Shown here: positions 1,090 through 38,914 of the stretch, in pieces | Position numbering within the stretch: position 1 is the stretch's first letter | How the letters are laid out: each line of letters begins with the position of its first letter | Assembly (NCBI GenBank): GCA_965287045.1 | Contig: OZ336876.1 | Coordinates: forward strand, 2,356,001 to 2,420,000 | Direction of reading: 5' to 3' | Length of the DNA: 64,000 nucleotides | DNA from: Carcharhinus amblyrhynchos | Taxonomy: Eukaryota | The notes under the pieces: generated by a model | Databases searched by the model: none | What the model saw: the letters and a program-made list of their open reading frames with translations, nothing else | Told to the model about the DNA's origin: nothing | Program-made: the position numbers and the translations under genes

Positions 1090-1099
1090 AGGTTTTCAA

Positions 1100-4120: not shown

Positions 4121-4309
4121 GTATCTTGTCCAGTTTAGGCACACACTAACGGCATGAAGCACTCGGCCAATCTCGAACAACCAAGAGCAGCCCCAGTACG
4201 ACCCATCACTTGTATGCCCCTCGTTGGACACGAGGTGGACCGACTTAAAACCTGTGAATGAAAAGAGAAAAACATTATTATCATACTATACTCATTTACA
4301 TTTCCAGAG

Positions 4310-4680: not shown

Positions 4681-4879
4681 GGGGGTTGCAATACTCAAGG
4701 CTTCTACTCAAGAGATGGAATGAACACAAGTCAGGATTTTGCATGTCAGCACAATGCTAGCTCTCCACAGGGCAGCTGATGGGACAGTATGTTCAAGGGA
4801 TGGAGGGATTACATACTCAAATTATGCAGCTCCATGGGGGCATGACGTGAGCGGGGAGCCATATGTATGTGTGGGCGTA

Positions 4880-5460
4880 GACCGTATGCGTGTGTGTGTG
4901 GTTAGGGGGGGGGGGTGGGGGGGGGGAAGTATTGAGACCAGCACGGTCACATTCTGGGGGGTGTGGAGGGTATGTTGTGGGGACCAGCAGTGAGGTGAGT
5001 GATGTTTCTGTGTAGGGGACAGCAATAAGCCCAGCGATGTCTCAGGTTGCGGGGGGGTGGGGGGGGGGGGCGCGTTTAATGTGGTTCTGGGGGCCAACAA
5101 TGAAGTCAGCGATGTCTTTGTTGGAGAGTTCTGGGCGCCAGCGATGTGTGTGTGTGTGTGTGTGTGGTGTAGAGGGGGCGGGTGCTTTGTTTATTGGACA
5201 AGCGATGAGGCCAGCGACATGTGTGTGAGGTGGTTGTGGGTGCTTTGTTTATTGGCCAAGTAATGAAGCCAGGGAGGTGTGTGTGGGGTTTGGATGGCAG
5301 TGACCTGGATGTTGGGGGCGGGGGTCTTTTCAACGAACTTCCAGCGTTGTGCCCATGCTTGGGTTCCCGCCCATTCCGCTGATTTCAGGCTATTTGGCGC
5401 GAATAGGCACAACCATTTCCCCACCCCCCACCGCCCCTCCAGCCCCACCCCCGAGCGGTT
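4880..5460. repeat. G-rich/GT-rich low-complexity region with long G runs and (GT)n
   Basis: G-runs near 4905-4927 and 5051-5070, (GT)n near 5145-5166, C-runs 5418-5452. Confidence 0.7.
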
Positions 5461-6544
5461 TAGTGATATTTACCTCTGGGATCTCTGCAGTGCACAGAGT
5501 GCCGAAATTCGGACGAGAAGCTGAACTGCGAAAACAGTTGGGATTTAGTACAGTCCTCCAACCAGTTCAGTAATTTTGAAAAAAAAATGCGGACTTTGTC
5601 TCTATTGTGCTTCGAAATGCTCATGACAAGAAGAAGACAAAATTAAAGAGCCATACTGTAAAAAGTGATTGCTTAGCAACGAGGGGCACATTTCGAATAG
5701 TAAAGCTTTTTTTTTGTGATTTTGTCTTTGACCTTAATTCATAGCATCTGATTATTGGAAGCTACCGCGGCAATATCTCTCTCAGTTTCATGGGATGAAA
5801 ATGTACATTGTGGGATAAGTATTAATGAAAAAAAAAGATAGTTAAAGAACAACTCGTAATGAAAACTAGAGAAAGGTAGAGAAGTTGTCAAACCGCCTGA
5901 AGTTTAAAGAATAGAGGGGAGTTTGTGTTTACCTTTATGCCTTCACCGTTCAAAAATCTGTGCTGGTTCTCTGTTTAGATAATACTTTGTCCTTTTATCT
6001 TTGCTGCCAAAAGAAAAGGCACTTCACGTGTTCACGTTTTATATTCCATCCATCACTCACTCAATCTCTCTTTCTGCGCCTGCAAACTGCTTATGTTTCT
6101 TCGCAACGTGCTTACCTATGTACCATTGCATCATCAGCATCGTAATCTGAGGACTCAAACGTTAAAAATTATTGCTAAAGAACTAAAGAGGACGCGAAGA
6201 GGGGAAGAATCATTGGGCTATGTGTCGTCATCTGGAATGCAATGCCTCAATGCATGTTGTAAACGGCATCAGTACAACGTTTCTAAATAAACGTGGATAA
6301 TTGTGGAATAGTGTAGAAATGCAAGAACGGGGCTGAAATTTATTACAATGTTCAATGAAGCGATGTTCTAAACGGACAATGAGTCACATGGTGAATGAAG
6401 GGACTGTTCAAGCTGTGCAGGTCCTTTCATAGTAAAGATACGGTGTAGAAGGACAGCATTTTTGTCGATCAAACAGCCAGAGACAGATGGGCCCAGTGGG
6501 AATTGAGGATGAATCCTTTCATACAGATCACTGGAGAGTCCCGT

Positions 6545-6890
6545 GGTTTTTTTTGCACAGTGTTACGGCGGCATATCACTGCTCCCTCACAACGACAGGG
6601 ACCCGGCTTCATTTCTAGCCTTCCTTGATTGCATTCGTGGAGTCTGCATTTTCTCTCTGTGCTTGTCAGAGTTTCCTCTGAGATCTAGTTTCTCCTGCTG
6701 TCCAAAGGTGGGCAAGATATGTGGATTGGCCATTCTAGATTGTCCACTACTGTCTAAAGATATATATTTCGGTGGATTGTTCATCGTAAATGGGATTTAG
6801 GTAAAATGCTGTGCTGGAGAGCCGCTGCAGGCACGGTGGGCTGAATGGTCCCCTCTGCACTGTAGAGATTCTAAGATTCTATGATTCTAT
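6545..6890 (+). mobile_element. Decayed SINE (HE1-like) ending in GATTCTA(A/T) repeats
   Basis: cagggacccggcttcatt, ggagtctgcattttctct, tail gggctgaatggtcccctctgcactgtagagattctaagattctatgattctat. Confidence 0.7.
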
Positions 6891-6944
6891 ATAAACAAGG
6901 AGCTTTTGGCTTCAGTTTGCTTTTGAGCAGTCTGTTCACTCCTG
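6881..6944 (+). CDS. Candidate leader exon 1 (MILYKQGAFGFSLLLSSLFTP, phase 1)
   Basis: ATG at 6881, hydrophobic run, strong donor CTG|GTGAGT in phase 1 compatible with the next exons; the ATG lies in a SINE tail, so the assignment is uncertain. Confidence 0.4.
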
Positions 6945-9900
6945 GTGAGTGGCCAATGTAACTGAAATTGGATCTAAACACCTTATTGAAAATGTCAATC
7001 ATTTTGTTGGCCTTGTCACAGTTGATGAGGTCCTTTCGTTGATACTTGTTGTCACATTTCGACAAAGTTTGTCTGTCAACTGTCAGTTATGTTTCCATGG
7101 GTGTATTTTTCATGGCAATGCTCCTGCCAATCAAATTCCACTTGCCAAACTGGCATTCCTCTCTTTTCATACAATCTAAATTGGTGTTGCTTTTACATGT
7201 GGCATTTTTTCCAAATCATATGGATGAGTGCAAGAGGGAAAGCCTCGGTAGCACATGCATTTTTTTTTTCCCCAGCGTTTGATCTTGACACACAGCAACG
7301 CAAAATATTTCCTGACGAGATCAATAGCACATTTCAGACTTCAATGTAATAAGTTAATGCTTCAAGAGTATGTTGAAAGTTAGAGGATCAGTGGACGTAA
7401 AAGATCAGCAACGTTTAACGTTTTTCTTTCTGTTGAGGGTGTTAAAAGGGGAACCCCACACTTCATTATTTTAATTTATGTTAACAGTACAAGAAACAAA
7501 GTAAGCCCTTCAAACTCCTGCAGCTCCTCTGCCATTCAAAACAGATACAACTGATTTGTATCTGCTGTATGTTTACAAGCCCTGTTTCCACATGCTAAAG
7601 GATGTACGTCAAATGACTATCGGAACATAATGACATAAGAACTAGGAGAAACAATAGGTCATTTAGCCCTTCGAGTTTACTCGACCTTTCAGTAAGATCA
7701 TGGCTAATCTTTTTATGGGCTCTAGTCCCTTTACCCGCCCTCTCACCATAGCTCTTAATGTATTTACTGATCAAGAACCTGCCTATGTTTGCCTTAAAAA
7801 AAGAAGATTCAAAGAAGTACCTCAACTGCTCACCAGGCAGGGATTTGCACGGATTCACAAGACTTTGAGAGAAGAGGCTCCTCCTAAACTCAGCCCTAAA
7901 TCTGCCACCCCCTCTTATTTTGATGACATGCTCCTTAGTTCTGTTTTCATTGGACATTTGAAACAACCTCCCTGTTTCTTTCTTATCTATTTCCTTCGTA
8001 ATTTAAAATGTTTTTTTTTCATATAAGATTTCCCCTCACCCTCGCAAATTCCAAAGAGGTTAGTCCCAATCAACTCAGCCTCTCCTCATTAGCCAACCCT
8101 CTCAACTCCGGAATCAACCTCGTGAATCCCCCTCTATTGCCAGTATATCTGTGATGGCTGGGTTGAATGACTGAAACTATTGAAGAGATTGAGGGGCCTC
8201 CTTTATTTGAAATGCCTCATTTTAGGTCATGGGTTGTATTAAAATCAGTAGTATCATTCTAGAATTGTCGGCAGCATCTCGTTGCTGTTTAAGTAATTCA
8301 TATTATCTCCTTTCAGTGGCTTTTGCAATTCGGCGGAGCGTTTCTAACAGTAAGTGTTAACATTTCTCTCTAAAATCATGACTGTAAGTATTGAATTTCC
8401 GGTCCTGATGAATGAGTTAGTTTGCGTCGCTTGAAATACATTCTTTTGCTGTGCACAATCCCGTTGTAATGAATCTCGTAAATCAGAACACTATTTTAGC
8501 ATGCCAGTGCCGTGATGTTTGAGGAAATGCCCGCATTTATTGACAGTTCATTTTTAATTCTGTTGAGGACGTAAAAAGAGCAACCCCGCACTTCACTATT
8601 CTACTTAATACCAACGACACAAAAAGTAAAATAAGCTCTTCAAACTCCTGCAAGTAAGTCTGATTTGTATCTGCTGTGCCTTTACAAGCCCTGCTTCCAC
8701 ATGTTTTTATAAACTTATCGAAGACAGAAGTTATGACTTAATAGTCTGAAAAATTCAATTTCCACAGCAACAGAAAAGCTTTTTTTTTTCTGCATTTGGT
8801 GTCAGATTTAATCTAACCATTGTTAGAGCGTGTTCGTTATAACTTCCCTTTGAATAACCTACCCAGATTTTCTCTCCTGCAGAGAACTATGAAATGGGAG
8901 GAATTAACACGTCTTTTCTTTGCGAAAAACGTGTCTCATCGAAATCAAATAACTCTATAACTGAGGACCTCTATACGGAATATAGCCCATGAAATTGGTT
9001 GCAAATATTCACCCTAACATTATTTAAGTGTGCAACTGCTGCATTCCACTCAAGAACAATAAGTCATCCTGAGTTGTTCTATCCAGTACTGAATTTCATA
9101 AAAGGTCTAGTCTAACAAGAGATCAATAGAGCAAGAATGCAGATTGAACCACATATTTATTCAACGGACCTTGAAAGGAAGTTGCTACCCCATTACCCGC
9201 TTACATTCCATGCAAATACTTCTACTACCATTGAACCACTTTGTCTGCTTTCTTGTGATGAGGATGTGTCTGTGTTTATTTGTTATTCCATTGAATAGGG
9301 GCTTCCCTGAAAATATTTGTTGTGAATCCTCCAAAATCCCTGTGAAGTGAATCCCTCATTCGGCTATTTCATAGGGAATTTAAGAGTCAACTCCAATACT
9401 GTGCATCTGAGTCAAATGTCGGCCAGATAAGGTAATAGTTTCCTTCTTTAAGCGACATTCGAAATTCAGAAGACTTTCTTTTAACAATCGATAATGATTT
9501 CATGGTCACCATAACTGATACAATCTTTAACTTCCAGATGTACTCATTTAATTCAAATTTTACCAACTGCCTTGGTGGAATTCGAACATGCATCCATAGA
9601 AAATTAGCTTAGGCGCCCAAATTCCTAATCCATTTCCCATTGCCTTCAATTGCTCCCAGCTTCTCAACTCTTAAACAATAAGGAATCTAACCATCCCCCT
9701 CCCGCAAGAAAAAACAAACTCTTTCAATATTTAAAAAATTCCCCCACACTGATTGCCTTAACTCAACATTACTTTTCCACGTTATTCTCTCATCTACGAA
9801 ATGTGATATACTATAAATCTTAGTGGCATAACCAAGTTAATATAAGCAAACCTACAGCTTCAGCAAAGTAGTTTACGAATACTGTAAATTTCTGCGAACC

Positions 9901-12900: not shown

Positions 12901-15900
12901 TTTGCTCGGAAACACTTTGGGGCACAGCGATTTTTGGCAGCTTGTTTTATAACGTCATCTTCGTGTCTGTGTATTTTTAATCGAACATGTATGATTTTTT
13001 CTTTTGCAGAATCTTCACGAATGAATTTAATGAAATCACATCAAAACAATGCAATCGGTGTTGAGCTACCCTATTGCAACGTGCATGGAAAACCAAGGAT
13101 CCAATATTAATTTGTCTTGCATTCGATTATTCGCAGATCAACTAAAGCCAGAGATACAGCTTGATCAATCAACTGGGGTTTATGTTCCAGGAGAGACAAT
13201 CACTATGACTTGCACTGCACCTTCAATTTATCAGCGGGAGACATTTCAGTTTTACAGAGGGGGCAAACGACTTGCCTATCCACAGATTTCCAAAAGCGGA
13301 GGGATTGGAACCGTTCGGGTTCTTACTCCAGAGCAAGGAGGGCAGTACCAATGTAACTATCACATTACTTCTTATTTCGTGATGTCCCCGATGAGCGAAG
13401 CCGTCTCTGTCACAGTAACAGGTATGTGACGGAAATAACACGATAACATTTAAAAAGGGGTGAAATTTGTCTTGGAGGAAAAGTGGGCTAAGATTAATGT
13501 ATCACTCTGTCCACATTCCAATGGCATTACTGCATCGAAAACAATATGAGTAGGAATCCCGTAATGTTGTAAGCAATCTGCACACATTCTGTGACTATAT
13601 TCAGGCCTTTTGTCAAGAAGAATCCATGCACCATTGGGTGCGAATGCTATGAATAAAATCCGGACTGACGAAATCAGTGCGTCAAACGGGGGTTATTGAA
13701 AACATCACTCATATATTTAAGATAAAATAAATTAGCGTTTGGTGATGATTGCTGGATCATTTCATTCAGCTCATTGAATGACCCAATTCACTGAAATGTG
13801 TTTTTTTTAAAAATCAACTTGATCCATTTTTCCTTCTGTTTCTCTAGTCGAAATGTTAGCAGTAAAGCCGGAGTTTTGCAACATATTGCAGTCTAATATA
13901 TTGTCTGTAGATTTGTCGTTTCATTATGCTAAGTATATTTAACACTACCTTCCTGTAGAATGCCAAATCTATCCGCAAAGCTGTTAAACTTCCTTGACGG
14001 ATTGTCCGAGATTTATTTGAGTTTGTTTTTACAAATTTCACCGCAGAACCACTCGCACGTCCCAACATATCACTCGATCAACAGACTGGTGTGTATATAG
14101 AAGGAGAGACAGTCAATCTCACGTGCACAGTTAATGGGAGGAATCCTGATCGAATCCAAATTTTCAGAGATAGTCAATTGTTGTCCTCTGATCAAATCAT
14201 CACACACGAGAACATTGGAACATTTACTGTGACCCATACAAACCAAGGAGGGTTGTACCGATGCAAATGTAAAACTTCTGTAAATGGAAGGTGGTTTGAA
14301 TCTAAGTTGAGCACGCCTGTCAATGTCATAGTAGCAGGTGAGTGAAGGAGCAGAAATGGTTAATATGCATAATAATTCTCTCAGACACCCTGAATTTCTG
14401 CATTTCAAATGAAATTTCACTGGTTTCATGAGAATGTTTAAAGGATTTCGTCCAGCCGATGGTTGTTTGCACGATGTAATGGGAGATTGATCTCGCTGGC
14501 ATGGCAACAATTAATATGATGTGGAGATGCCGGCGTCAGACTGGGGTAAACACAATAAGAAGTCACGCAACATCAGGTTAAAGTCCAACAGGTTTATATG
14601 ATAGCAAAAATCCACTAGCATTCAAAACGCTCGCAGGCCCCTTCGTCAGGTGAGTGGGGTAGGGCACATAAAGATGCGCACTTAATTTCCAAAATAATCG
14701 TTGTAATGCGAGTTCTTTTGCACGTAATCAAGTCTCAAAGTTACAGAAAATGTGAGTGGAGAGACCGTTAACCACAGACTAATGAGATATTATTGTTTCC
14801 AGACAGGACTGTTAGTAAGATTTTGCAAGCCCAGGCAAGTCGTAGGGATTACAGATAGTGTGACATGAACTCAAGAAGCTGGGGGGTTGAGGCCGCCGTC
14901 ATGTGTGTGGAAAATGGCTACCAGTCTCTGCTGAGCGACTCTGCACTGTGAGGTGTCGTGAAGACCGCGTTGGAGAACGGTTACCAGATTGTACGTGACC
15001 GCCGAAATGTGCCCCAACATGAAAAGAACACTCTTGCCTGGTGATTGTCGAGCGGTGTTCATTCGTCCGTTGTCGTAGCGTCTGCACGGTCTCTCCTGTG
15101 TGCCATGCATTGAAACATATAAGATGATTAGAGGTTTAGATAGGGTGGACAGTGATAGCCTTTTTCCTCGGATGGAGAAAGCTAGCACGAGGGGGCATAG
15201 CTTTAAATTATGGGGTGGTAGTTATAGGACGGATGTCAGGAGTAGGTTCTTTACCCAGAGGGTGGTGAGGTATTGGAATGCCCTGCCTGCTGCAGTTGTA
15301 AATGCGCCGAGTTTGGGGGCGTTTAAGAGATCTGTGGATAGGTTTATGGATGGAAAGGGTTTGGCTTAGGTTAGAGGGTCATTGCTTTTTAACTGGTCGG
15401 CGCAACATCGTGGGCCGAAGGGCCTGTTCTGCGCTGTAATGTTCTATGTTCTATGCCTCGGGACATACTTTGCTGCAGCGAATCGGGGAGACAACGTGGA
15501 CCCACATCTCCCACTCACCTGCCGAAAGCGCAGCGAACGTTCAGAAAGGTTTAGCTAACGTGGCGTTGTGAGACGTCTTACAACAATTAATATTCCAGCA
15601 ATAATTGTACCATGCGAATATGTTAGTGAGTTGCCTTATTGAACCGCTGCAGTGCCTGAGGAGTAGCTAAGCCTGTGCTTTTCGGGAGAGTATTCCAGGA
15701 TTCCGGCCAAAGGACAGTGAAAAACCACCGATACATTTCTACGTTAGCGTGGTATATGGTTTGGGGATAGATGTGTTGGTGGTGGCGGCGGGGGCTGGGG
15801 GGTGGTGTGCTACTTGCAGGTGGCGCAGTTCCCAGGAAACTGTTGTTCTTATCGTTGTAGTGTGTTGAGGTTGCTAGTTTGGATGATGCTGACTAATGAA

Positions 15901-18900
15901 CTTTGCTGAGTTCCTGCAGCACATCTGTTAGATAGTACACATCACTACCTCGGTGAGTCAATGGTGAAAAGTGTGACCATTTCTGATTCGGGTAGCAGTG
16001 ACGTTAGCCTGTTTCGTTGTCGATTGTATAGAGCTTCTCTAGTACTGTTGGATCCACACTCATGTAGGTAACTAGAGAATTTTCCATCACACCCCTGACC
16101 TGCGTTCTTGTAGCTCGTGGACAGGACATTGGAGGTCAGGATGTGAACGCCAAACATGTGATTTTCAACGCAACCCATTCCCCTTGATATTTCAGGTTGA
16201 AATCTGAGCGATGAAGTATTTGTTTTGAAATATCCCATCTGATTTGCTGCACTTTACTTTTTGACTCCCTTAGTTCACTGTGCTTTGCTTAATTTCAACG
16301 GCCTCTGAAAAATTCCCATTAACACCAGAGACTTCAGACTGCATTATCTCAGTTACCCGTGCAAAATGTTTCACGTTCGATTTCTATTTAATGTTCATTA
16401 ATTTTACCACAGAACCGCTCGCATCCCCCAGAATATCAGTTGATAAAGAGGCTGGTGTGTATTTAGTTGGAGAGACTGTCGTTATGGAATGCACAGTAGA
16501 CAGAACAAAACCTGATCTAATCTTCTATTACAAAGATAATCAACCGTTGTCCTCTTTCCAAATCGTCACAATGGGCAACTTTGAAGCATTCACTGTGAAC
16601 AATACCAACGATGGAGGGAGGTACCAATGTAAATATACAAAGTCCATCAATGGAAGGGACTTGCAGTCCGAGCTCAGCGATCCTGTGGATGTCGTGATAG
16701 CAGGCGCGTAAAGATGGAGTGTTAACATCTTGATTTACTGGCTTTTTTGTTGATCGTATGCTTTATTGCATCGGACGTTNNNNNNNNNNNNNNNNNNNNN
16801 NNNNNNNNNNNNNNNNNNNNNNNNNNNNNNNNNNNNNNNNNNNNNNNNNNNNNNNNNNNNNNNNNNNNNNNNNNNNNNNNNNNNNNNNNNNNNNNNNNNN
16901 NNNNNNNNNNNNNNNNNNNNNNNNNNNNNNNNNNNNNNNNNNNNNNNNNNNNNNNNNNNNNNGGGTCGTCTTTTCTTCATGACTGGTCCAGAATAGTTGT
17001 CCATTTATTCTAATTAGATAATCTGAATATCATTATCGCCTTTGTCACCATTAATCACAGGGTCAAATGATTCAACGATCCAAACAGAAACCGCTCACCC
17101 CCATCTGCCACAGCGGCTCTTTAAAGAAGTATGCACTTTTAATGTACTGATATATTCGGGATCTGGGCGGAGCTGGAAAGGGCACTATTTAAATCTCCAT
17201 CCAGACTTACATTTAAGAAAGCAGAATAATCCCTTACAAGTGCCTTTATTTAAGTATTAAGTAGTTTTCCTGGTGTGTATTTAAACATTTCATTTCGCTA
17301 TGTTGCAATATGTTTCCATCACACTTCTAGAGAAAACACTCTAAATCCTAACAATTTGTTTCATTAAGGCAAGCCTCCTAATCTCAGTCCAGTTTCTTTC
17401 GCCAGTAAACTTAGATCTATTTTACTTGGTAAAATGCATATTGTAATATCGACTTCCATTGCTTTGTACTTAGTTGATTAAAACCCTTCCTAATTTTGAA
17501 AACCTCGACGAAGTATTCCGTTCCATGACCGTGAGGCACAGAGAAGTTGCATGCTCCCCGCGCCTTTCCAAGTAAGGGAGATTCGTCTTCCCTGATACCA
17601 TTCTGATGGGTGTTTTCTAAAACGTTTTCAATTAATGGTTTTCCTCTCCAGACTATAGAGCCCATTAATATTCCAAAATTTCAGGTCTGGCCTAATCTGT
17701 GTTTTTAGTGGATGCATTTGTTCATGAAACTCTTAAAAAAAACTCATCCCTTTGTCCTGCCAACTGGAAAGATTTGCCTTCACGTAACTCCAATCGTCCT
17801 CTGTTCCAGCATCCCATTGATACTTGTGCCCTTTTGTTCATGCTATTTGTCCCCTCATTCTTCCAACCAAATACCCCTTTCATGCTCGTTATTGCAATAA
17901 ACCGAATCTTCCTGAATAAACTCAATCTGCCTGTACATCCGGAATGGGTGTTATCTTCATTTTCACTTCCCAATAATTTTGAAGTTTTCTCGTCAACTGC
18001 AAATGTCTTTAATGCATCCTGCCTATCCAAGTTCACAGCTTTAATCATGTGTTCCGCTACTGAATTTGAATATATCGTTTCTAATCGTTGCCTTCCAAAT
18101 ACAGATTTCCCCAAACCAAATATGACAGTGGATTTTGGGATTGTTGCTGATTCTGGAGAAGTCGTATTGAAATGTTGCAGTCCAGGTGGCATATCCGGAG
18201 CAACATTTTTTTTGCACAGGCAAGGAGAAACAAATTATTCAGATGTGCAGTCTGCTGCTCACGGGGACGATTGGGTCAATTTCATCATTAAGGTAACCGA
18301 CAACAGAAAAGAAGGAAATTACAGCTGTTGGTATGAAATGGATGTGAATGGGAGGAAGATATCCTCAGGTGCGAGTGATCCTGTGCACGCCACTGTAAGA
18401 CGTGAGTGAGATTTACAGTCGTTTTATTGAACTCACTTTGTTAAAAGCTGCTCCTGTTTTAGTGTTATCCTGTATCCCTATTCTAGTTGAACTAACCAGA
18501 ATACTTTGTAATTCGAATGATTGTGAACACGAGATCAGAATGTTTTCTCCACCCATGTGCGGTATTGATTCAGGACTGAAAGAGTTAGAAATTCATACAT
18601 GATCTCACCAGCTGGGATTCATGGTACATTTGTCTGGACCGAGCTTTAAGGCTGTTGGGGAGAAGATCAGAAATTGCAAGTAATATTGTGAACTTAACTT
18701 AGACCTCAAGCTTTTTAATTGTTTGGATTTTGGCACGAGGGTGAGCCGAAGTTATTTCGCTCCAGATGCGACTTCATTGAATCCTGAAGCCGCCTTTATT
18801 TTACAAACCTAATATTTCTAACAAAACAGTTACAGTATAACAAAACGATTGGCGTAACTCTTACCAGTTGAACATATTTGAACATTGCAATTTGTAGTTC

Positions 18901-21900
18901 TTAAAAGTTAACTCTCTCCATAGTTCCAATTAAAACGGAATCCGCATAGACATGAATCAATTTGCTGAATCAAAAACAAAAAGGAGCTTTCTCACGTCGG
19001 TTCTGCCTCAAGCCTTTTAAGCTCATTGGAGACAAAGACATCCCTCTTCTGACTCAAATACATTCATCTCCAGAGAAAGATCCACTCCTGAACGGCAGCA
19101 CATCAGAGAAAAAAAAACGTATGTTTTACAGAACACATTCTCCAAATCCAGGGGCAGAAAGTGACGCACTGCTCTCTAAAAATTCCAAGCAAAATTCGAA
19201 TTTGATTTTTCTGAGTAAGCTTAGTTCCACTCAATCAACTGATTTTTATTTCATTCAGCAGAATCATGTCCAAGTGTGCAAAACCCAAGTGGAAAACAAT
19301 AAAAGAACATAGCAGTATTAGTCTAGAAAAGAACAAATATTCTAACATTTGGTAGCAATCACATCGCTGCAATAACAACATAAGCTGCCAATTATCAGTC
19401 AAGTGACACAATGGCTGGAACAGACAGTTAAATAATTCGCACAGAAACATGACTCTAATACAATTCTTAAAGGCAGAGTATCGTTACGTGCCTAATGTCC
19501 AATGCATGAATTAATTAATTAACAATGCAGTTCGTAATATTCCTAATAGAAATTTATAGTTAGGTTAATCAAAAGTAGCAGGTAAAGAGTGACACCGTCC
19601 TCCTCACAGCAAGTTTACAACTACAGTCTGGAAAAGGTTACTTGATGCAAAGTTTTCATGCGAACCACCTATAGAGAGGACAGAATGTGGCTATCAAATA
19701 ATGTCGCAAGTTACCAAAACAATGACAATCTGAAAAGAAAACAGAACAATGTAAACGTCTCACAAGTGTGGAAAATGGTCTGCCATGTTGCGCAGAGATG
19801 CAAGAATGTTAATGGGTGACTGGAGACCTGTTGAAAATACGAGCACAATGTTGTTCCTTAGATAGGGATAAGCAGGGGGGACCGATTAAATATAATTGGC
19901 AAAAAATAACGAGAGATTACTTTTATTTGAGTGAAGGTTTTTTTTGTAATCTGCGGCACATGACCATAAACCGTAATGTAAACATATTCAGTGACTTTCA
20001 AAAGGAAACTGAATAATTTGAAACAAGTAACAGAAGATTGCGGAAAACAAGCAAGTGAGTTCGACTAGAGAGAGTAATTGGGTATAACTGAATCGTTCGT
20101 TCAAATGGTCAGCACGGGCACAATGGGTTAAAATAACTTTGCCTGTGCTGCATATCTACATCATGTTCAAACGGCACGTACCTCCATCTTTCTGTCCCTC
20201 TCTTTGTCTTTCTGTTTCAGATGATACTTTGTTCTCTGTTCTTGGAATACTGTATACAGTTCTTTTCACCCTATTGCAGAAAGGATATTATTAAGCTGGA
20301 AAAAGTGCAATAATGATTTACTAGGATGTTTCTAGGTCTTGATGGTTTTAGTTATAAGGAGAGGTTGGCTACACTGGGACTTTTTTTTCTCTGGAACGTA
20401 GAAGGCTGAGGAGTAATCTTATACAGGTCTATAAAATAATGAGGGACATAGCTCAGCGAGATAGTCAATATATTTTTCCAAATGTAGGAGAGTCTAAACC
20501 TAGAGGGCATAGGTTTAAGGTGAGAGGGGAGAGATACAAACGAGGGACATTTATTTTTCACACAGAGTGTGGTGAGTGTGAACAAGCTGCCAGAGGTAAT
20601 AGTAGAGGTGGGTGCAGTTTTGTGTTAAAAAATAAACATTTAGACAATTACATCAATAAGATGGGTATCGAGGGATATGCGCCAAATGTGGGCAACTGGG
20701 GCTAGCTTCGGGTTTTAGGAAAAAGAGCGGCATGGAAAATTTGGGCCGAAGAGCCTGTTTCCATGCTTTAAACCTCTACGACTCTCTGACTCTACAGTAT
20801 TGCAGTCTCAGATGATTTGCTGCTTTAAGCATTATCTATCTTGTGCAGTAACTGTCCGTTAACATTGTTCTTCTCTCTGTGTTCATCTCATTTAGCTAGG
20901 GGAGCCGTTGTTCTAATAATGGCTGGTGTTCGTTCTGCTGTGGTTCCGATTCTTAGCCTTACTCTGTTGGGTGCGTGCCTCTGCATGAAAGGTAGGAACA
21001 CGATGGATAACAACAGATCATTAAAGATGGCAGGTTAATGTGACTGTCCGCTCCTTTGGTCAATATATCCCAAATGCCTCATCCACCTATTCATTCATCT
21101 CTGATAGTAGAGATAGATACGAAAGCATAAATGGCCAATTACGCATTTCAAGTAAACCTCAGTAGAAATAAAACTTGCACGGAATGGGCATTATATAGAA
21201 TTTCAAATCGACCACCCGCTACAAGTTCAGAGGAGTGGAATAAAACCGTAGTAGGAGAAGGTCATTTGGTCTTTCGATTATGCTCAAACATTCAATCAGA
21301 AACTGATTGATCTGGTTATTGTGTCAAATCATTTGTTGTGAAGTTATATATGTAAAGTTAAAAATGTGTTGCTTGACAAATGCAAATTGTGAAAAGAAAC
21401 ACTAAAACCAAAAAAAAAACTATACATATATATGCCATCATACCTTTTACAATCGCGTATCTTTATGATTGGATTTTAAATTGCACAGTGCAGGCTGCAG
21501 AAGCAGGTTTTTGCAACATTTGCACCAAAGCATAGTAACCAGTGTTCCAACCGAACCAAAAGAGGTTTTTGAATTGCACTGATGAGTTTAAAGGAAGAAC
21601 GCAGAGACAGAGAAACAATGACATTCCGATGCAAGGGATTTTGATATGCCCAGGCCATTCAGATCGCAGAAACACTGCGAGGTGTATGAACCCAGACAAG
21701 GGAGGATAACGGTCAGAGTACGTTTGCAGCTTCTTGAGTCAGAAGGAGGACAAGCAAAACATATCAATACAGCAGTTTCATGTATGTCTTTGTAATATCA
21801 GAATCTAAACAGGGAGAGAGGCATCAACTCAGAAAGTGTTCAGACGAGAGCATCACTGGAGAATGCTAAACTTATAAGATATTCCCGTTTGTACACTAGT

Positions 21901-24900: not shown

Positions 24901-27900
24901 AAAGCTAGACTCGAAACCTTGACTCCATTGTCTCTCCACAGATGCTATGAGACCTGCTGAGACTTCCCAGCGTTTTTGTTTTCTATTTTTGATTCATATT
25001 CTGGTATCCACAATACTTTGCGATTAACTAATGTACCGGGTTCCCCTTAGCTGAATGCAGGCGTGCCTTGTCAAGGTGTTTCACCTTCTTGCATCTCTCC
25101 ACTTCGTTCACCCTCTACACATTTTTCAGATCGCTGTACTTTACAGACATCTTCCCGTGAACCGGTCTCTCCTTTTACCACTTGAAACTATGGTATCCCA
25201 GTCGTGCCATTCAGTCCAAAGGCTTCGTCTCCATTGGCTGCACTCCCACATCTGCCACACTCTGAATTTTCTCATTTCACACGTTCGATCTCCATTACCC
25301 CAAACCATATGTTGAAGACATTTTTGCGAAATATAGCACAGTATTTATCTTCATAATTTCCACGTAAGACCCTATTAATGGCACTTCAGAGATCTTAATT
25401 TCACCGGCGAACAGTGATTGATGTTTCGTGATGCGAATTCACAGGCATCTTTTCAGGCCCTGAAACATGTGTGTGCCTACTAGAAATGAGCCATCAAGAT
25501 GTTCTAAACAACCATAAACAATTGACACCTGAAAAAAAAACTTCTGTTGCTGTTCATAGAATTTGCTTTCTGTGGTGTCGGGGTAAAGTGGGTCAGGGAA
25601 ATTGTGGGTTATCATTTCAGATCAGTTTTGATCTCATTGAAAGTCGGAGCAGACTCCATGGATCGAATGAACGAATTCTGTTCCTCCGCCTTCTGGTCGT
25701 ATGTTTTCATAGTATCTATTCCAACGCAAACATATACTTGCCATTGTTCTTGCATGTAAAAGCACCTCAGACAGTACTAAAGATTCCAGGTCATCACTAT
25801 GTGACCTGCAGTTACACATCACAAAGACACGGCAGCCGGTGAAGTATTCTGAAATACTTTGTAAACTAAACAGTTTATGTTCGACCATCTGGCAATCTTT
25901 TGTTATTAGTACTACCAAGGGCTATTATTTAAACGTCCAATATTATTGACTAATTGAATTTAATTTCCTGGAGAATGGGGTGGACTTTTTACACATGTTT
26001 CAAGTTTCGCAGTCCGGCGTTCTGTAATATTAGCCCAGTCAACCAATAACTAATCCGTTATTCACATGTTTTTGTTTATTAATGGCCACAAAGATATTTC
26101 TTGCATGTTAGTCTTCTCCAGCTCAGTCCTGTGACCGAAAAAATGTTTTTTTTTCGATTTCTGATGTTTATGTTTCCTTCTTAGGGAAGAGGAGAAGGAA
26201 CACAGAATCAAGGTAAAATCTTTAAGCGTTGAATATAAACGACATGTAGCGAACACGCTTTTCTGAAACCAATGTTCAGATAATTTGTATTATTTACACA
26301 TATTGCGTGTTTTGAATTAAGTATTGGGTCTCCAAATTCACACGCACAATTGCACAAGCTATAGAGGAATGGAGACGTAAATAACACGCTCAGAAAATTG
26401 TGCATGCGCTCCAGTAAACACAAACACAACGGTCATGCATTACCCACATCAAATAGGTATTCATGCCAGAAAACAAACGCAGGCGATCAAACATACACGA
26501 TTTCACAATCATAGACGCTCAAATTCAGAGTCACGCACATGCACTGAAACACGTCTACGCTTTCACGCACAGGTAGACAGAGACACTCACATAGGCACCC
26601 AAACACACACATTAATACACATAGATATCAAAACACTCACATAAGCTCGCTCACTCATGCAGGCACAGACACTGAAAGAGGCAACCACTCAGGCCACAAT
26701 TACGCATACGCACACAAACTTCGAAACACATTCGTAAAACACTCACAAAAAAACACATATATAAACATTCAAAGACAACACATGCGCACATACACATATA
26801 TAACATGTACTCAAATACACAAATACTCAAATGCACTGGTAAATATGTGTTGATTAAGAAAAACATAAGCATAGGCTTTTACACAAAGTTACTGACACAC
26901 ACAATCATGTATATTTGGTTTCTTTTTCTCTAACATGCACAGTACTTCCGTCCCGTGTGGGTGGCATTCCCTCCAATAATTTTGTTTTCAACCTTCGCTA
27001 TAAGTGTCGGCTCGATCCAATCGCACAGAAACATATTGCCAGTCATGCAAACAAGAAGAATTTTATACATGACACCGGAATCACATCTTCAGTCCTTTCG
27101 AAAATTGTTCTGTTATGTATATGTCCGAGATTTATCGGACAATCTAATCAGCTGAACATTTCTCTTATTTGTAGGAACATGGTGCTCTTCCACAAAGAAA
27201 GTGATGACAACGTTACATGTGAGTTAATTTCAACATTCCAGCAGCTGGGATCATCATTTATGTTTAGAAATCTGTCTGAAACATAAATAAAAATGAACAG
27301 AGAATTTCGCATTATCTGCTATCAATTTGCAAGATATTCGGAGATGAGCACTCAAGAAATACATACGCACGTGCACACAAACGCCGGAAAACATTCACAA
27401 GGCACACACAAAAACGTTTTCTGATGCATTGAAAGACAGACACCCGCATACATAGCGCGCACTCAAACACACAAATACTCAAATACACTCAAAAGCATGC
27501 GTTGGCACAAAAACACAACGACACATTTGGCGCAAACGTACTAACAACCACGATCACAATGTCTCTCTCTCTCTCTCACTCTCGCTACACACACAGTTTT
27601 AATGAAACAGTTGTAAGTGACGTCGAACATTAGCCATTCTGTCACATTTTGACTCGGAAGCAGATGTTAGGGTTTATTTTTGTTTCCGGTCCAGTATCAG
27701 CCCATAACTTGCAGCCCATTTTTGTTTTGTCAATTGCTTTGCTCTTAATGGGTGGAATAGGTAGTGCCATTTAGAATGGGCGGCTGTTTACGTACGACCG
27801 CTCCTTTCGTTAAAGCGAATGCTTGAGATACATTTCTTTTACCTCAGATACAGTTAACTGCTGAAGGAAATGGCGTAAAATTCATAATAATGTTTTGCGC

Positions 27901-30900
27901 AAAGAGGTAATCCAATCGCAATCTCCCCACTCCGATTTTAATTCGTCCTGTCTGGGCATACACAGTGAAAAGCCAATGCTTGTCATAGCCAGGTTGTACA
28001 ACGCCACTGCTTGTATCTGGTTGTAATGACATCACGGTAAAGAACGACGGATGTTTATCTTAAAATTGCTTTCTGGGCACGAATTTACTTTAGATCACGT
28101 GCCAAGCACGCCTTATTACCAGAAGGAAGATTGCAAAAGCATACGATTATTTCTGCATCATTGAATGAAATTTGGGTGGATATAGAAGGTTGCAGTGTCC
28201 TGTTGACGCGACGAATATTTGCAGGACAATTTAGAGCACGGAGAGGCTGTATAGATATTAATGAATCTCGTTTTCTTTGAAGTAACTTCAGGACGTCGTG
28301 CCCAATGCATCACTTTTTCTTTACTGCTAGACAATTTAAATAATTGGGCTGGCCAGTGATGGGGGTCATTAACCCAAACACGTTTCCAGAGATTCAGAAC
28401 AGTGCTCCTATGCTGAATGTAAAAACTCATATTAAAAAAGTGAGATTAAATATGCAAATTAAATGAGATAAGGCAATAATTATTGATTAAGTTGAAATGA
28501 TTTATGGAGTCTAGAGTGGAGTATAACAACACTGTCATGCACTAGGGAATGAAAGGCCTATTTCTCTCCTGTACATCACATGGGCGATCTAATGGCTGAC
28601 GTCATCCATAATGATTTTGGGCGTTCAGCTGAACGGTGGATGCTGGACACGTGGATGATGTGCAGTTATACTTAGCTGTAACATGGTTTTGACGGTGTCG
28701 GTCCATGTGTCTTTTTTTTCATTGTTATGTACTGTTCAGTAGCAAATCATACGGCCATTCATCATTCGGAATAGATAGGCCATTCAGCTCCTCTGTGTGT
28801 GCTGATCTGATTATGACTTCAAATTGGCTTTCTGATCTGTCTTTCCCAATAATTTCCTTGTCAGTCAATAATTCACGAAACTCGGCCTTGATTATTTTCA
28901 ATCACGATTTACTGGAAAAAATACCAAACACTAATGAGACTTGAGGAGAAATAAACAATCTTCTAATCCAGGTCGTAAATGGATTGCTGTATTTTAAAGT
29001 AAAAAGGTGTGACATAATTCGAGCTTCCAATACAAATGGTAACATCCCCCGAGCATCTACCGGCCAATTTCCCTCAGGAGCTATTGTGTTTCAATTATAT
29101 CACCTACAGTTATTAAAAAAAAATCAAGTCCAACCTGTCCAACATCTGCTTTGAAATAGAAAATCTCTTGCATCCCAGAATCAGCCGTGTGAAATGTTTA
29201 CTAATTTATGGAGCAAAATGTTCGAAACCAGTGGAAACTAAACCTACCTGTAAATTGTATTTAATTAATTTAATTGTATTGATTAATTTAAGTAGTGAGG
29301 CAGTGTAAACAATGTAACTAAATTATAGAGATAGTTGCCAGATTAAGTGGATAGGCAGTGAAGATACAATGTTTTACTGAAGCACGGTTGATCCATATGT
29401 GATACAGATATTGCAGAGCAGCTTCACCTTGTACAAATAAAAATATCATCGCGTGGTTTCAAAACATTTAAGCCAATACAAATATTTCAGAACCAATTCG
29501 CTCCTGATCCAAATTCACAGTTCTAGATCAATTTGACGATTATGCGTTGCCATAGAAATTGTTACAGTCAAACAAGCATGGTGAGAACTGTCCATTCAAG
29601 GTAAAAGAAAATCCCATAATCACAGCAGCAAGGGACGAAACAATTTGGTCCACAGTGTCTTCACGGGCTCTCCAAATGTGCAGCACAGGTGTTGCATTTT
29701 TCAACTTTGTGACGCTAACAAGTCCAACAGTTTAAATCGATTACATAATCCCGAGGAAATCTTCCATCTATTTCCTGGATCACAGAAAATAATGGGAACG
29801 GAGGGTCAATGTAGGAGTAATCTTCGCTTCCACATGAGCAACCAAATACATCGAAACATGTTATTCCCAACTCATTAATATTAAGTTATTTAACGATACA
29901 TCCTCGAGGAAATTGGCCTATCATTGGCATTAAACACTTAAATTAAGGTATCAATGTTGTCAGTTGTTAAACATTAGTCTGATTTTGCTCCCCTTTGTTT
30001 ATGTTGCTATTTAGACGCTGTTCTTATCCTACAAAAACAATCGAAGAAGGATCATTAAGTTATAACTTGCACCTGTTGGAGCATGCTTTTGTGTGCGTGT
30101 GCCGTTTTAGGCTTTAATATTATCTTTCATTTCACTCATTCATGCTGTGGAATTATTTTTTGTGAAAATATTAGGCTGTGCTTACTCACTGACCTCTTCT
30201 CCTTATCTCTCATATCATGATTCTCATTCCATAAGAGTATATTTGCCACAAGAATGTTTTAAAGTTCAGCATTTTCAGGCAGGTACCTATCTGTATGGAA
30301 CGCATACAGCTCAGATGATGGGTAGCAGAATGTTTACTAAGCTTAGCCTTGCATTTTGTTATGTTAAGTAGAGTTATTGGATTGTTTAAACGTAACTCCT
30401 CTTGGGATCTCAGAGTAGAATGATTAGCAGGGTTATGTGATATTGTGGGCTATGGGCAGTCCAGTTTCTGGAGTAAAATAAATCAGACTTTTTGCTGTAT
30501 GGAGTTGGAGTTTGGCTGTTCTGACAGAATGCATGAGAATTTTGGAGGATCCTGAAAGCTTTATATCTTTCTGAAACCTCCAAAGCTGCTTGCTCATTGC
30601 AGCAAACTTTTTCTTTGCGTACTCCCGTTAAAGGTGGTTATGAGCCTGTCGATGATTATTGCTTGTTTTGAATCGAAATAGAGGTGAGGACATTTTTTAC
30701 TTGTTTCAACTATTAAGAGTTAAGATGATTCAATATTTTAGAGTCGAGCTTAAACTGTGTTACGAATGAAAATCATTTTGATAACATATCCTCAATTTGT
30801 CCGTGGAATTACTCCTGCAGCAAGGAATCATTTTATGCCAAGAACAGAGAATGTGCTGGAGCCTTAGTTTACAGTATGTCATGAGGTTTTGATGCGGAAC

Positions 30901-36900: not shown

Positions 36901-38914
36901 ACATGTTCAGCTGCTTCATTCTGTTAGATTTAGACTTGAACAAAGTTTTGAAAATACAATCTTAATTTTCAGTGGATTTACTCCTGCACCAAAATATCCT
37001 TCTCTCAGATGAATACCAAAATAGGCAACTTGTCTTTGGGTCGAGTTTGCTGTCACTGCATATCTCGGGTCTCTGTTTTAATCTATCTCGATCATGTCAC
37101 TGAAATGTCTGTATGAAAGATATTCCAGTGGATCTTTATCAGCTGAGATAGATTGAACAGCCGCTTCTTCATAGAATATGAATCTGTGAGTATTAAAATT
37201 GGGAACGTGGCATTGGAGTATGCTTTTCACTGACTTATGAAGTCAGTTATGCAGGCTAATATCCCAGCGACCTGGGTTTTAACCCTGCAAAGGTAGATGG
37301 TGCAAATTAAATGCAAAATATGAATTTAAGCCACTATCATGGGCCGAAAAAATCTGACTCGGTATGGTCCATTATGAAAGGAGAACAAACATTGTTACGT
37401 GCTCTGGTCTACAAAGGACACAACAACCACATGTCGTTGATTGTTATACGTCCTTTGAATAGCCGAACAAGTGGCTCATTTCAAGTGCTATCAGCGATGG
37501 ACCACAAATATTGGCTCATCCAGCGAGTTCTACATTCAATGATTTAAAATATAGAAACAAAAATCTGCTCCACCTACAGTATTAGAAGTAAACGAAAAGT
37601 TAATTTCCAATTACTGTAGATTAGCATGTTAAATAGACTCATAAAGTTGCGATGTATACTCCTATAAAATTGGTACTCTATAGGTACTCTGCAGCAACAC
37701 ATTACAAGAAGCTTGTTTTAAATGTGCAATCATATTTGTTAGCGACGAAGCTCCAGCTTAGCATATCTACAGCTGCCATCATTACATGTTATCTTTCGTG
37801 TTATGTTGCCCCTTCTATTTAATGATGAATTGCATTGTTCTGTACTTTTTTTTCCTCTCGGGGTGAAATTGTAATTGCAAAGGACATTGGTGAACTCACC
37901 CATGTAACGTTTTATTACCATAATTAAGGTGGGTTATGCGGGCATTGAAAGTAGTTCAAAAAATGCTCTCTGGGATGATTTCTGAGATGAATTAGTAACC
38001 TTTTTGGGAATAGTTGAGCAGGGCAGAATTTTGCTCACTAGAGTTCAGAATAACGACAAATGTACTTTTAGTAACTGGTAAGACCACGCATTGACAGTGA
38101 GATGTTTGAGAGGCTGATCCCTGTTGTGAGATTTTAAAGCACGGGTACATCTTTTAAAATGTGCCGTCCTTATCGTTAGACGAAGATAGTAAGAAGTATC
38201 AAAACATCGGGTCAAAGTCCAACAGGTTTATTTGGAATCAAGAGCTTTCAGAGAGCTGCTGCTTTGTGACGAAGGGATGAAGTGTCAGCGCTCCAAAGGC
38301 TTGTGATTCCAAATAAACCTATTGGACTTTAAATGCGTGTTGTGAGACTTTGTTATGTGCCCACCACAGTCCAAAGCTAGTGTCTCCGCCTGAAGGCAAA
38401 GATTAGTAAGGACCTTTCCACTCACTTTTGGTTCGTCATTTTATTTCTCTTTCCCAGATGACAGTGATTTATCTGCCATTGAACATATTCAAAGCTAACT
38501 TACATGTTTCATTGAAAAGGGATTGATGGCTTACCATTTGACTAAATAAGGAAAATAGAACCAGTTTGGGAATTGTTTGCTTGACATAGGTTAATTATGT
38601 TCGTAAATTGCAAAAATGATCGTAATTCGACGTTCAATGTACATCTCACACGGTTTTCCATCCCATTCAGATGTCAATAAGGTTTTCCGAGTGGAAAAGA
38701 ATCACTAGTCATCTGCGATATCATTGAAAACTCGTATCAAACGTTTGCCTCTTTCTGCCACCATTCGCATACGGATAGAATTTCGCTGACATGTTATCAA
38801 ATTTCAAGACAATTTCTTTTTTTTTACCAATTTCCGAATTTGTTTCAGGGTTGCCGAAATACAGCCCAATCCCAGGAAGAGGACATCATCATCTACGGAG
38901 TGGTGAAGCTGTAG
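6881..38914 (+). CDS. Multi-exon type I Ig-superfamily leukocyte receptor gene (4 C2-type Ig domains, TM with Arg, cytoplasmic ITIM(s)); LRC-family-like (LILR/CHIR/LITR-like); possibly partly decayed
   Basis: Exons 6881-6944, 8317-8349, 13137-13421, 14047-14337, 16413-16703, 18105-18401, 20896-20991, 26185-26212, 27175-27218 and 30015-30058 join in one frame (1473 nt, 490 aa + stop). All splice phases are compatible. An additional ITIM terminal exon lies at 38849-38914. Confidence 0.8.
7623..8150 (-). mobile_element. Decayed CR1 3' fragment
   Basis: ORF 7595-7966 RFRAEFRRSLFSQSLVNP..., tail cataagaactaggag. Confidence 0.75.
8317..8349 (+). CDS. Candidate 33-nt leader mini-exon (xAFAIRRSVSN, phase 1-1)
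   Basis: Acceptor tattatctcctttcag| and donor |gtaagt, open frame; a split leader with a mini-exon is typical of LRC/FcR genes. Confidence 0.6.
10020..10620 (-). mobile_element. Decayed CR1 3' fragment
   Basis: ggagtaggccatcattc tail, gagagatttcctgagattcatcatactctgagagaaaaa, cttgtcaaacttctctgaactgcttccaat (reverse CR1 ORF2). Confidence 0.6.
11190..11860 (-). mobile_element. Decayed CR1 3' fragment
   Basis: ggcagctcgttccaggcacttaccaccatctctgtgaaaaa, cctctgtaagatcttccgtaagcctcctacgttccaggg, aagcatgccaaatgccttc. Confidence 0.7.
12346..12397. repeat. Imperfect (CA)n microsatellite preceded by a C-run
   Basis: acacgcacgcacacacacacacacgcacacac... Confidence 0.9.
13137..13421 (+). CDS. Ig domain exon 1 (C2-type)
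   Basis: ttcgcag|...ACAG|gtatgt, 285 nt, phase 1-1; QLKPEIQLDQSTGVYVPGETITMTC...FQFYR...GGQYQCNY...SEAVSVTVT. Confidence 0.92.
14047..14337 (+). CDS. Ig domain exon 2 (C2-type)
   Basis: ccgcag|...GCAG|gtgagt, 291 nt, phase 1-1; EPLARPNISLDQQTGVYIEGETVNLTC...GGLYRCKC...STPVNVIVA. Confidence 0.92.
14519..15590 (-). mobile_element. Penelope-like retroelement remnant (GIY-YIG endonuclease region) interrupted by a CR1
   Basis: Minus-strand IRCSKVCPEA...GETVQTLRQRTNEHRSTITRQ...VGAHF; terminal segment caggttaaagtccaacaggtttat also present near 38210. Confidence 0.7.
15110..15455 (+). mobile_element. CR1 3' end nested in the Penelope remnant
   Basis: IETYKMIRGLDRVD...TRGHSFKL...FFTQRVVRYWNALP and tail gttctatgttctatg. 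Confidence 0.9.
16413..16703 (+). CDS. Ig domain exon 3 (C2-type, paralog of Ig2); non-canonical donor
   Basis: ttaccacag|, 291 nt; EPLASPRISVDKEAGVYLVGETVVMEC...DGGRYQCKY...SELSDPVDVVIA; donor position reads GCAG|gcgcgt. Confidence 0.88.
16780..16962. other. Assembly gap
   Basis: Run of N. Confidence 1.
18105..18401 (+). CDS. Ig domain exon 4 (membrane-proximal, LRC-like C2)
   Basis: aatacag|...AGAC|gtgagt, 297 nt, phase 1-1; DFPKPNMTV...VVLKCCS...ATFFLHRQG...VNFII...EGNYSCWY...SGASDPVHATVR. Confidence 0.92.
20240..20800 (+). mobile_element. Decayed CR1 3' fragment
   Basis: aggatattattaagctggaaaaagtgc, KPRGHRFKVRGERYK, tail gggccgaagagcctgtttccatgc. Confidence 0.75.
20896..20991 (+). CDS. 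Transmembrane exon
   Basis: catctcatttag|...AAAG|gtagga, 96 nt, phase 1-1; PRGAVVLIMAGVRSAVVPILSLTLLGACLCMK. Confidence 0.8.
23530..24720 (-). mobile_element. Decayed LINE (CR1/L2-clade) RT and 3' end
   Basis: Minus-strand LDIKATFDRVWHQG, QGPTIFSS, GQRLGILQQV...YREEVRDVIEYSP. Confidence 0.75.
26185..26212 (+). CDS. Cytoplasmic exon 1 (GKRRRNTES, stop-transfer)
   Basis: tgtttccttcttag|...AG|gtaaaa; phase 1-2, basic cluster directly after the TM. Confidence 0.75.
27175..27218 (+). CDS. Cytoplasmic exon 2 (RNMVLFHKESDDNVT + first base of Tyr)
   Basis: tttctcttatttgtag|...ACAT|gtgagt; phase 2-1. Confidence 0.75.
30015..30058 (+). CDS. Cytoplasmic exon 3 (YAVLILQKQSKKDH*), completes ITIM VTYAVL
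   Basis: ccctttgtttatgttgctatttag|AC GCT GTT CTT; T+AC gives Tyr; TAA at 30056-30058. Confidence 0.7.
33799..34779 (+). mobile_element. Young 5'-truncated CR1 LINE with uninterrupted RT C-terminal ORF
   Basis: ORF KFADDTK...WQMEFNVGKCEV...RPQLEYCVQFW...FFTQRVVNLWNSLP; tail (ttcttatg)3. Confidence 0.95.
35030..35355 (-). mobile_element. SINE (HE1-like), inserted in the Gypsy RT
   Basis: aggaaacccatgcagacac...aatcgaacgcgggtccctggcgctgtgagac...ctaaccactatgccacc. Confidence 0.8.
38205..38390. mobile_element. Short palindromic Penelope-derived fragment
   Basis: aaagtccaacaggtttatttggaatca ... tgattccaaataaacctattggacttt inverted arms. Confidence 0.65.
38849..38914 (+). CDS. Candidate terminal cytoplasmic exon GCRNTAQSQEEDIIIYGVVKL* with ITIM IIYGVV
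   Basis: Long pyrimidine tract and tgtttcag| acceptor, phase 0, acidic residues before the Tyr, TAG at 38912-38914. Confidence 0.65.
   Translation, partial: GCRNTAQSQEEDIIIYGVVKL

Follow-up and report, generated by a model that had tools for sequence, protein, structure and literature searches.

The window examined here is a stretch of 64,000 nucleotides (nt) from the shark Carcharhinus amblyrhynchos (contig OZ336876.1, positions 2,356,001 to 2,420,000; G000:C7:2356001-2420000 in our numbering). It carries a gene that, as read from the DNA, is a paired receptor of the leukocyte receptor complex (LRC) type, caught after a Gly-to-Arg change in its transmembrane (TM) segment and the loss of the second motif of its cytoplasmic tail. 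Unless it is decaying, the gene is likely in transition between an "off" receptor and a mixed on/off one. Receptors of this kind are known, as is the switch, with examples in CHIR, KIR and Ly49; what is new is the shark lineage. A preliminary description had proposed an LRC-type immunoglobulin (Ig) receptor combining a TM Arg with two immunoreceptor tyrosine-based inhibitory motifs (ITIMs). As an observation it was partly confirmed, and its interpretation was partly supported.

The window gene, copy A, is the first of four tandem copies and is followed, at intervals of about 100 kb, by B, C and D. Copies A and C have Arg (CGT) in the TM segment, have lost a splice donor and have a short tail, while B and D have Gly (GGT), keep the donor and carry an ITIM plus an immunoreceptor tyrosine-based switch motif (ITSM). 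Every exon junction of the window gene is a prediction from DNA, and the three small tail exons were placed via splice signals conserved among paralogues. The features of copy A are as follows.

8317..8349, + strand, second leader exon, 33 nt, AG/GTAAGT (splice signals, paralogue comparison)
13137..13421, + strand, Ig domain 1 exon, the most variable among copies (Pfam Ig_2)
14047..14337, + strand, Ig domain 2 exon (Pfam Ig_2), with a derived Tyr-to-Cys change at 14268-14270 in both Arg copies
16413..16703, + strand, Ig domain 3 exon (Pfam Ig_2), GC donor in all four copies
18105..18401, + strand, Ig domain 4 exon, membrane-proximal, LRC-type (Pfam Ig_2, PDB matches)
20896..20991, + strand, TM exon, inhibitory type (paralogue and homologue comparison)
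20931..20933, + strand, Arg codon CGT, which is GGT (Gly) in B and D (copy comparison)
20946..20948, + strand, mid-TM Pro codon in copy A only, Leu in B, C and D (copy comparison)
26185..26212, + strand, tail exon 1, basic stop-transfer stretch, same sequence in all four copies (conserved splice signals)
27175..27218, + strand, tail exon 2, ending with V-T and the first base of the ITIM Tyr codon (conserved splice signals)
30015..30058, + strand, tail exon 3, which completes VTYAVL and runs on to TAA at 30056-30058 (conserved splice signals; donor G lost)
30280..30288, + strand, candidate cryptic donor CAG/GTACCT, 224 nt past the stop (7/9 consensus matches)
30477..30482, + strand, first AATAAA past the stop, candidate new 3' end (sequence signal)
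38849..38914, + strand, former last exon, with IIYGVV here and TIYGVV in B and D, where it is coding; out of reach in copy A

The four Ig exons bear FQFYR, IQIFR, IFYYK and FFLHR, the C-strand Trp being missing in all four domains as the preliminary description had it, and Pfam Ig_2 matches each of them. GxYxC, the first part of the domain ending given there, is also present; the second part, SxPV, occurs in Ig2-4 only, Ig1 having SEAV. The TM Arg and the 33-nt mini-exon of the split leader were found where they had been placed. The proposal that leader, four Ig domains, TM segment and tail splice together in frame stood for the Ig exons, the TM exon and the mini-exon and fell for the first and last exons, and the joint after Ig3 needs a non-canonical GC donor in a weak context (CAG/GCGCGT, 16704-16709). 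Since this GC donor is the same in all four copies, where the exon frame is open, the protein would have four Ig domains, or three if the donor is not used, as Ig3 is then skipped in frame. A GT five bases beyond the GC donor would be out of frame. The predicted protein has 478 residues and one ITIM in copy A, 501 residues in B and 499 in D.

VTYAVL is contiguous in no frame; this proposed ITIM proved to be formed over the junction 27218/30015, with its Tyr codon split. The VTYAxL exon of copies B and D, 41 nt in length, ends CAT/GTAAGT, and the last exon, which bears TIYGVV, follows it in frame, giving a tail with VTYAAL (the ITIM) and TIYGVV (ITSM-type). In copy A the donor G is gone (CAT TAAGT, a one-base loss) and the frame meets TAA at 30056-30058, with no GT or GC between VTYAVL and this stop, so IIYGVV, the candidate second motif, cannot follow in frame. 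Skipping one, two or three tail exons leaves the last exon of copy A out of frame, and the sole route to IIYGVV is a poor GT within the exon (3/9 consensus matches) that removes VTYAVL. What remains of the claim of Arg and ITIMs in one protein is a TM basic residue with one ITIM, as predicted from DNA. The former last exon of copy A differs from that of B and D by four non-synonymous and no synonymous changes, and its divergence (6.1%) equals that of the adjoining intron, as expected if it no longer codes. The last exons of B and D are identical, which is not proof of constraint because their tail introns (tail exon 1 to last exon) also differ by just 0.7-2.2%.

Direction of change among copies and species

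Copies A and C group from Ig1 onward, for example at 186 of the 189 informative intron sites between the TM exon and tail exon 1, which makes it probable that an Arg/Gly pair was duplicated as a block. They also have in common three TM exon changes (Pro-to-Leu, Ala-to-Thr and Ile-to-Met) and the Ig2 Tyr-to-Cys change. In a tree the four copies form their own clade (support 100/100). A sequencing error behind either the Arg or the donor loss was rejected, since both are present in two separately assembled copies whose introns are 1.4-3.8% apart from Ig1 on. Copies A and C may be false duplicates of two haplotypes, but the ectodomain introns of B and D are 6-8% apart. Set beside the near identity of their tail introns, this divergence suggests gene conversion keeping the inhibitory tails of B and D alike. 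Ig4 of A and D is 0.7% apart with no synonymous change, between flanking introns about 5% apart. This is a hint of pairing, recalling the homogenised ectodomains that have been reported in paired receptors (PMC3210942), though constraint alone could also explain it.

A pattern search over the homologues P0001-P0072 gave 17 distinct inhibitory-type TM segments from other sharks, with Gly in 16 and Arg in one; the TMs of rays and the activating TMs were unmatched by the pattern and are left out of this count. Ten inhibitory-type TM exons were seen in this genome, seven with Gly, two with Arg and one with Cys. A distant paralogue retains the 41-nt exon 3 with GTAAGT. With Gly in most TM types and the exon and donor kept in the paralogue, Gly and an intact donor are, on this comparison, ancestral, and Arg and the donor loss are both derived.

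Contigs of genomic DNA from related organisms A, B and C, which continue through introns, were aligned to the TM exon. Organism C has a Gly contig of depth 23.6 and a second contig of depth 6.9 (of 30.5) without the C-to-G difference at 20931. The second contig has the Thr, the Met and two intron letters of the Arg copies and differs from the window at 11 of 213 letters. Its Arg is read from an absent difference row in this one contig, and organism C is taken to be another species from a word share of 0.24. On these data the Arg type is not private to this genome, as it occurs in copy C and in the organism C contig. The preliminary description had considered that the Arg might be a private substitution; what was found is an inhibitory-type TM with a derived Arg, distinct from the activating TM of the family, yet the Arg is common to a second copy and to organism C. 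A 1.7-kb stretch of the window (30188-31907), in which both the cryptic donor and the first AATAAA downstream of the new stop lie, is absent from copies B and D and present in the organism A contig.

The sevengill shark Heptranchias perlo has a predicted protein, XP_067835049.1, in which Arg occupies the same TM site and the tail retains its first ITIM while the last Tyr motif is missing. In the tree this protein is placed with a Gly paralogue from H. perlo (87/81), and constraining all Arg genes to one group was rejected (p-AU of the approximately unbiased test 0.0001; 22 rows; Ig4, TM and proximal tail). With a single origin for all Arg genes rejected, the same two changes would have arisen twice.

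Family identity and LRC neighbourhood

The assignment to the LRC type was supported by the membrane-proximal domain. All 43 PDB matches of Ig4 at E<=1 are chains of PIR-B, LILR, FCAR-type receptors, OSCAR, LAIR1, NKp46 or KIR, with E-values that are for whole chains; single-domain scores are low. Its Atlas neighbours are KIR3DX1, IGSF1-like, A1BG and LILRA6, with FCRL2 tenth. The Ig1-3-type domains do not separate LILRB2, CHIR-AB1, FCAR and Fc receptors, and in a fold search with the Ig2 model (pLDDT 93.8) LILRB2, Fc-gamma-RIIb, Fc-epsilon-RI and CHIR-AB1 tie (Z 12.3-11.8, root-mean-square deviation 2.1-2.5, 83-88 residues aligned). The window gene has a split leader with mini-exon and one exon per Ig domain in phase 1. 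A split leader and one exon per Ig domain are typical of both LRC and FcR genes, hence not specific.

Homologues at high scores came from sharks and rays only, under automatic names, in agreement with the shark origin proposed from the letters alone. The nearest are from Mustelus asterias, with 91% identity over one inhibitory TM exon and near identity of an activating TM. An annotated product of the window gene was not found; the Ig2 search, among longer proteins only, gave one match, from Scyliorhinus.

The genome has 87 Ig-exon matches, most of them on C7:0.6-3.3 Mb; with eight activating-type and eight inhibitory-type TM exons on C7, this is a cluster of paired members. Broken Ig exons also occur in it. 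TTYH1, told from TTYH2 (C21) and TTYH3 (C18) by PDB matches, is at C7:4.14-4.17 Mb, 1.7 Mb away, and the nearest Ig match to that side is at C7:3.31 Mb. On the cluster-facing side of TTYH1 are a CDC42EP-family gene (C7:4.09 Mb) and a gene of CCCH/MJ1316/2'5'-ligase architecture (4.095 Mb), which we take to be that of LENG9. The TTYH1-LENG8-LENG9-CDC42EP5 group frames the mammalian LRC (PMC6557307). A candidate LENG8 exon by TTYH1 had no Pfam or Atlas match and LENG8 is unconfirmed. CNOT3 family matches were on contig C35 only, so that the synteny looked for was found on the TTYH1 side and linkage to the NDUFA3-PRPF31-CNOT3-RPS9 group was not; family searches for PRPF31 and RPS9 gave nothing anywhere in the genome and decide nothing. 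The LENG9-like open reading frame appears to be tandem-duplicated (L084:4239-6263 and from L084:8786, in L083-L087, G000:C7:4.08-4.13 Mb), and a Maf-type bZIP exon (L085:8964-9392) lies close to TTYH1. Two more multi-Ig genes of the family, both with Gly-type TM, are outside the C7 cluster, at C29:35.40-35.47 Mb and C31:23.92-23.97 Mb; ITIM exons of the usual form were not found within 25-35 kb downstream of them.

The family has two types of TM, an inhibitory one with an ITIM plus TxYxxV-type tail and an activating one that has a short tail, I-R-L close to the outer end and Glu at the inner one. Eight activating-type exons, not all of which need be intact, lie at G000:C7:0.58-1.57 Mb (L026-L033; 8/8 matches); a short deletion was seen in one and a frameshift past the TM in one. 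They fall into subtypes I-R-L-A-V and I-R-L-C-L, with the inner Glu in each and the Asn of NxxR in none. Two zeta-family TM exons were found, at L067:1504-1599 (G000:C189) and in L066 (C15), and the C189 exon, with its Asp, matches FcR-gamma best (45.7 bits vs 37.9 for CD3-zeta). A TM Arg couples LRC receptors to FcR-gamma, and NxxR and an inner acidic residue mark the TMs so coupled (PMC6557307). The window TM reads A-G-V-R and ends in Lys, and has neither mark.

Readings of the Arg copies and known systems

The reading we prefer, at somewhat short of an even chance, is that the window gene is an inhibitory LRC-type receptor turned Arg-plus-one-ITIM receptor, mixed or activating, like KIR2DL4 or CHIR-AB. 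A duplicate of an inhibitory shark Ig receptor would have gained the TM Arg and lost the donor leading to the last tail motif, leaving the predicted 478-residue receptor, and tail exon 3 would now end the transcript at the nearby poly(A) signal. The Arg lies 18 residues before the inner basic border of the TM, close to the 17 that separate Arg from Glu in the activating TMs, so it could reach the Asp of the FcR-gamma adaptor and pair with it. Loss of the ITSM half of the ITIM-ITSM pair would weaken recruitment of SHP-1/2, and the receptor, docked on FcR-gamma, would give a mixed or activating signal. The Arg and Gly copies may see related ligands as paired receptors. Support for this reading comes from the joint occurrence of Arg and donor loss beside intact inhibitory copies, the derived state of both changes, the organism C contig, the parallel case in Heptranchias, the open frames of the Arg copies, the FcR-gamma-like exon and the precedents in CHIR and KIR. 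A complex prediction for the TM exon with two FcR-gamma-like TM chains scored 0.03 against a mark of 0.34, which is not evidence either way.

Several observations weigh against this reading. The Arg sits in an inhibitory-type TM without NxxR or an inner acidic residue, in a genome that already has eight activating-type TM exons, and because the best hydrophobic window starts earlier it is eight residues inside the helix in A and C, not at the outer edge. Organism A (one contig) and organism B (seven and five contigs from two runs of one sample) all have Gly, and the Heptranchias case is one predicted protein that could be an assembly error. Over the four copies, 1406 exon columns contain no frame-breaking indels where 8.6 were expected, but the test is weak on the Arg copies alone (2.1 expected, P 0.12, or 0.03 with half the inner branch). 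Purifying selection was not seen on the Arg branches, where non-synonymous to synonymous changes number 8/1, 13/4 and 16/3, and pairwise ratios of non-synonymous to synonymous divergence (pN/pS) among the copies are 0.8-1.2. Both Arg copies have the Ig2 Cys at a site where family domains have Tyr in 100 of 111 and Cys in none, copy A has its private mid-TM Pro, and use of the cryptic donor at 30283, ahead of the first AATAAA (30477), would expose the transcript to nonsense-mediated decay.

The main rival to this reading is that the Arg copies are decaying duplicates. On that view the donor was lost before the other changes or along with them, transcripts are broken down or yield a useless protein, and the Arg, Ig2 Cys and TM Pro are neutral products of birth-and-death turnover in the cluster. 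Along the Arg branches the coding sequence has diverged at about the pace of introns and amino-acid changes are not in deficit, conserved sites have changed, the cryptic donor precedes the poly(A) signal, Ig exons in the cluster are broken, and 41 of 103 chicken CHIR loci are pseudogenes (PMC1458963). We consider decay somewhat unlikely, however. Both Arg copies retain open frames, the ITIM and every other splice site; the Arg type also occurs in a related species, and the same Arg with loss of the distal motif arose independently in Heptranchias. The Gly copies have the same codon pattern, likewise with no purifying selection (non-synonymous to synonymous changes 23/9 and 25/7). A functional but purely inhibitory receptor or decoy, in which the membrane accommodates the Arg near its outer face with no adaptor and the single ITIM is a weaker brake, seems quite unlikely: it would fit the lack of NxxR and inner Glu, the position of the Heptranchias Arg at the very edge of its best hydrophobic window, and VTYAVL being the commonest ITIM form in the family, but Gly is nearly invariant at the site, so that Arg is no common tolerated change, and Arg accompanies loss of the last Tyr motif in both lineages. 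It is very improbable that the family is FCRL/LITR-like and resembles LRC receptors through shared domain ancestry only. The Ig1-3-type domain profile does rank FCRL5 and Fc-gamma-RI above LILRB1, the tie of the Ig2 model, the NCBI label FCRL5-like on many homologues and the placing of CNOT3 on another contig point the same way, but Ig4 matches LRC receptors only, the TTYH1, LENG9-like and CDC42EP-like genes stand together 1.7 Mb away, and automatic names in this family have been called misleading (PMC6557307). The widest reading goes beyond the preferred one and is in our view unlikely. Here sharks would have a true LRC, a paired-receptor cluster by TTYH1-LENG9-CDC42EP5 with its own FcR-gamma-type activating TM, as a system at the base of jawed vertebrates, and inhibitory receptors would repeatedly become working Arg-plus-one-ITIM receptors by the same two steps, here and in the sevengill shark, as a second FcR-gamma route without NxxR.

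Human KIR2DL4 has a single ITIM. Together with its TM Arg this makes it like the window gene, and it is named as a mixed receptor (PMC1458963); a title cited within PMC4810170 links it to FcR-gamma. KIRs are mammalian, and KIR2DL4 is no orthologue of the shark gene. The same route from an inhibitory receptor to Arg was described for hominoid KIR (PMC6557307). The statement that Arg with ITIM is rare was overstated, since both features occur in 15 of 62 functional chicken CHIR genes (PMC1458963) and in five of 26 rat Ly49 genes (PMC3210942). Chicken CHIR (CHIR-AB, CHIR1C, CHIR2C) is close in several respects. Its tandem LRC-type cluster has expanded through duplicated blocks and includes inhibitory, activating and mixed receptors, the latter two kinds having evolved repeatedly from inhibitory ones; Arg was gained independently by an inhibitory ancestor, the ITIM part was kept and the old tail exons are pseudo-exons (PMC1458963). 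CHIR-AB1 is also among the top structural matches of the window Ig2. The shark gene differs in having three or four Ig domains against one or two in CHIR, in its lineage, known here from sequence, and in that the Arg type makes up two of the ten inhibitory-type TM exons seen. The separate activating exons of the shark cluster, with their outer Arg and inner Glu, recall LILRA, OSCAR, GPVI, FCAR and NCR1 in two of the features given in PMC6557307, but lack the Asn of NxxR, and the window TM is not of this type. The shark and ray Ig receptors at NCBI (FCRL5-like, IGSF1-like, LILR-like, KIR3DL1-like, OSCAR-like) have the split leader, TM and ITIM plus TxYxxV tail and are of the same family; their names are automatic, the four copies form a clade apart from them, and XP_067835049.1 alone has the Arg.

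A literature search, with subscription papers and supplements outside its scope, found no description of this shark receptor family or cluster, though NCBI already labels some members LILR-like. The available parts of PMC4536121, PMC4810170 and PMC6795676 do not describe it, and that of PMC8302630 places the LRC region on a proto-gnathostome microchromosome with the shark receptors not described. A 2014 survey did not find LRC homologues or FcR-gamma in sharks (PMC4016189), and in a 2019 study it stayed uncertain what corresponds to the LRC in fish (PMC6557307), as far as the available text of each goes. The LRC-linked paired-receptor cluster and the FcR-gamma-like exon found here contradict both negatives of PMC4016189, and the age of the LRC becomes directly testable with this genome. 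The window gene would be a dated example of an inhibitory-to-activating switch with unchanged sister copies alongside, and the Arg and Gly copies are a clean pair for asking if one TM change suffices to recruit an adaptor.

Start of the gene and minor features

The first exon had been placed at 6881-6945. Its ATG is the end of a repeat:

about 6574..6884, + strand, dispersed repeat of the size of a short interspersed element, whose end is the ATG at 6881 (matches on many contigs covering query 15-325)

The repeat gave 2564 first-look candidates genome-wide, of which 40 were scored. The frame starting at 6881 is broken in copy B by a one-base insertion. The ATG was rejected as the gene start on these two grounds, and the exon is probably not coding. 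No first leader exon of the family type was found in window positions 1-8316. A 28-nt exon, MDTSLLIIF, with donor GTGAGT, lies 17 kb ahead of the window (G000:C7:2338966-2338993), is shared by the four copies and agrees with homologue leaders; it is likely the first exon of the window gene. A lone degenerate Ig4-type exon (G000:C7:2328801-2329052) is upstream of this exon of copy A.

At window position 62345 (G000:C7:2418345) there is an ATG with a hydrophobic run and the donor G/GTAAGT, also present upstream of copy C, which may be chance or possibly another leader exon. Inverted fragments at 33801-34779 and 46989-47841, 96% identical, are from a very high-copy long interspersed element with a reverse-transcriptase piece and are present in some copies only.

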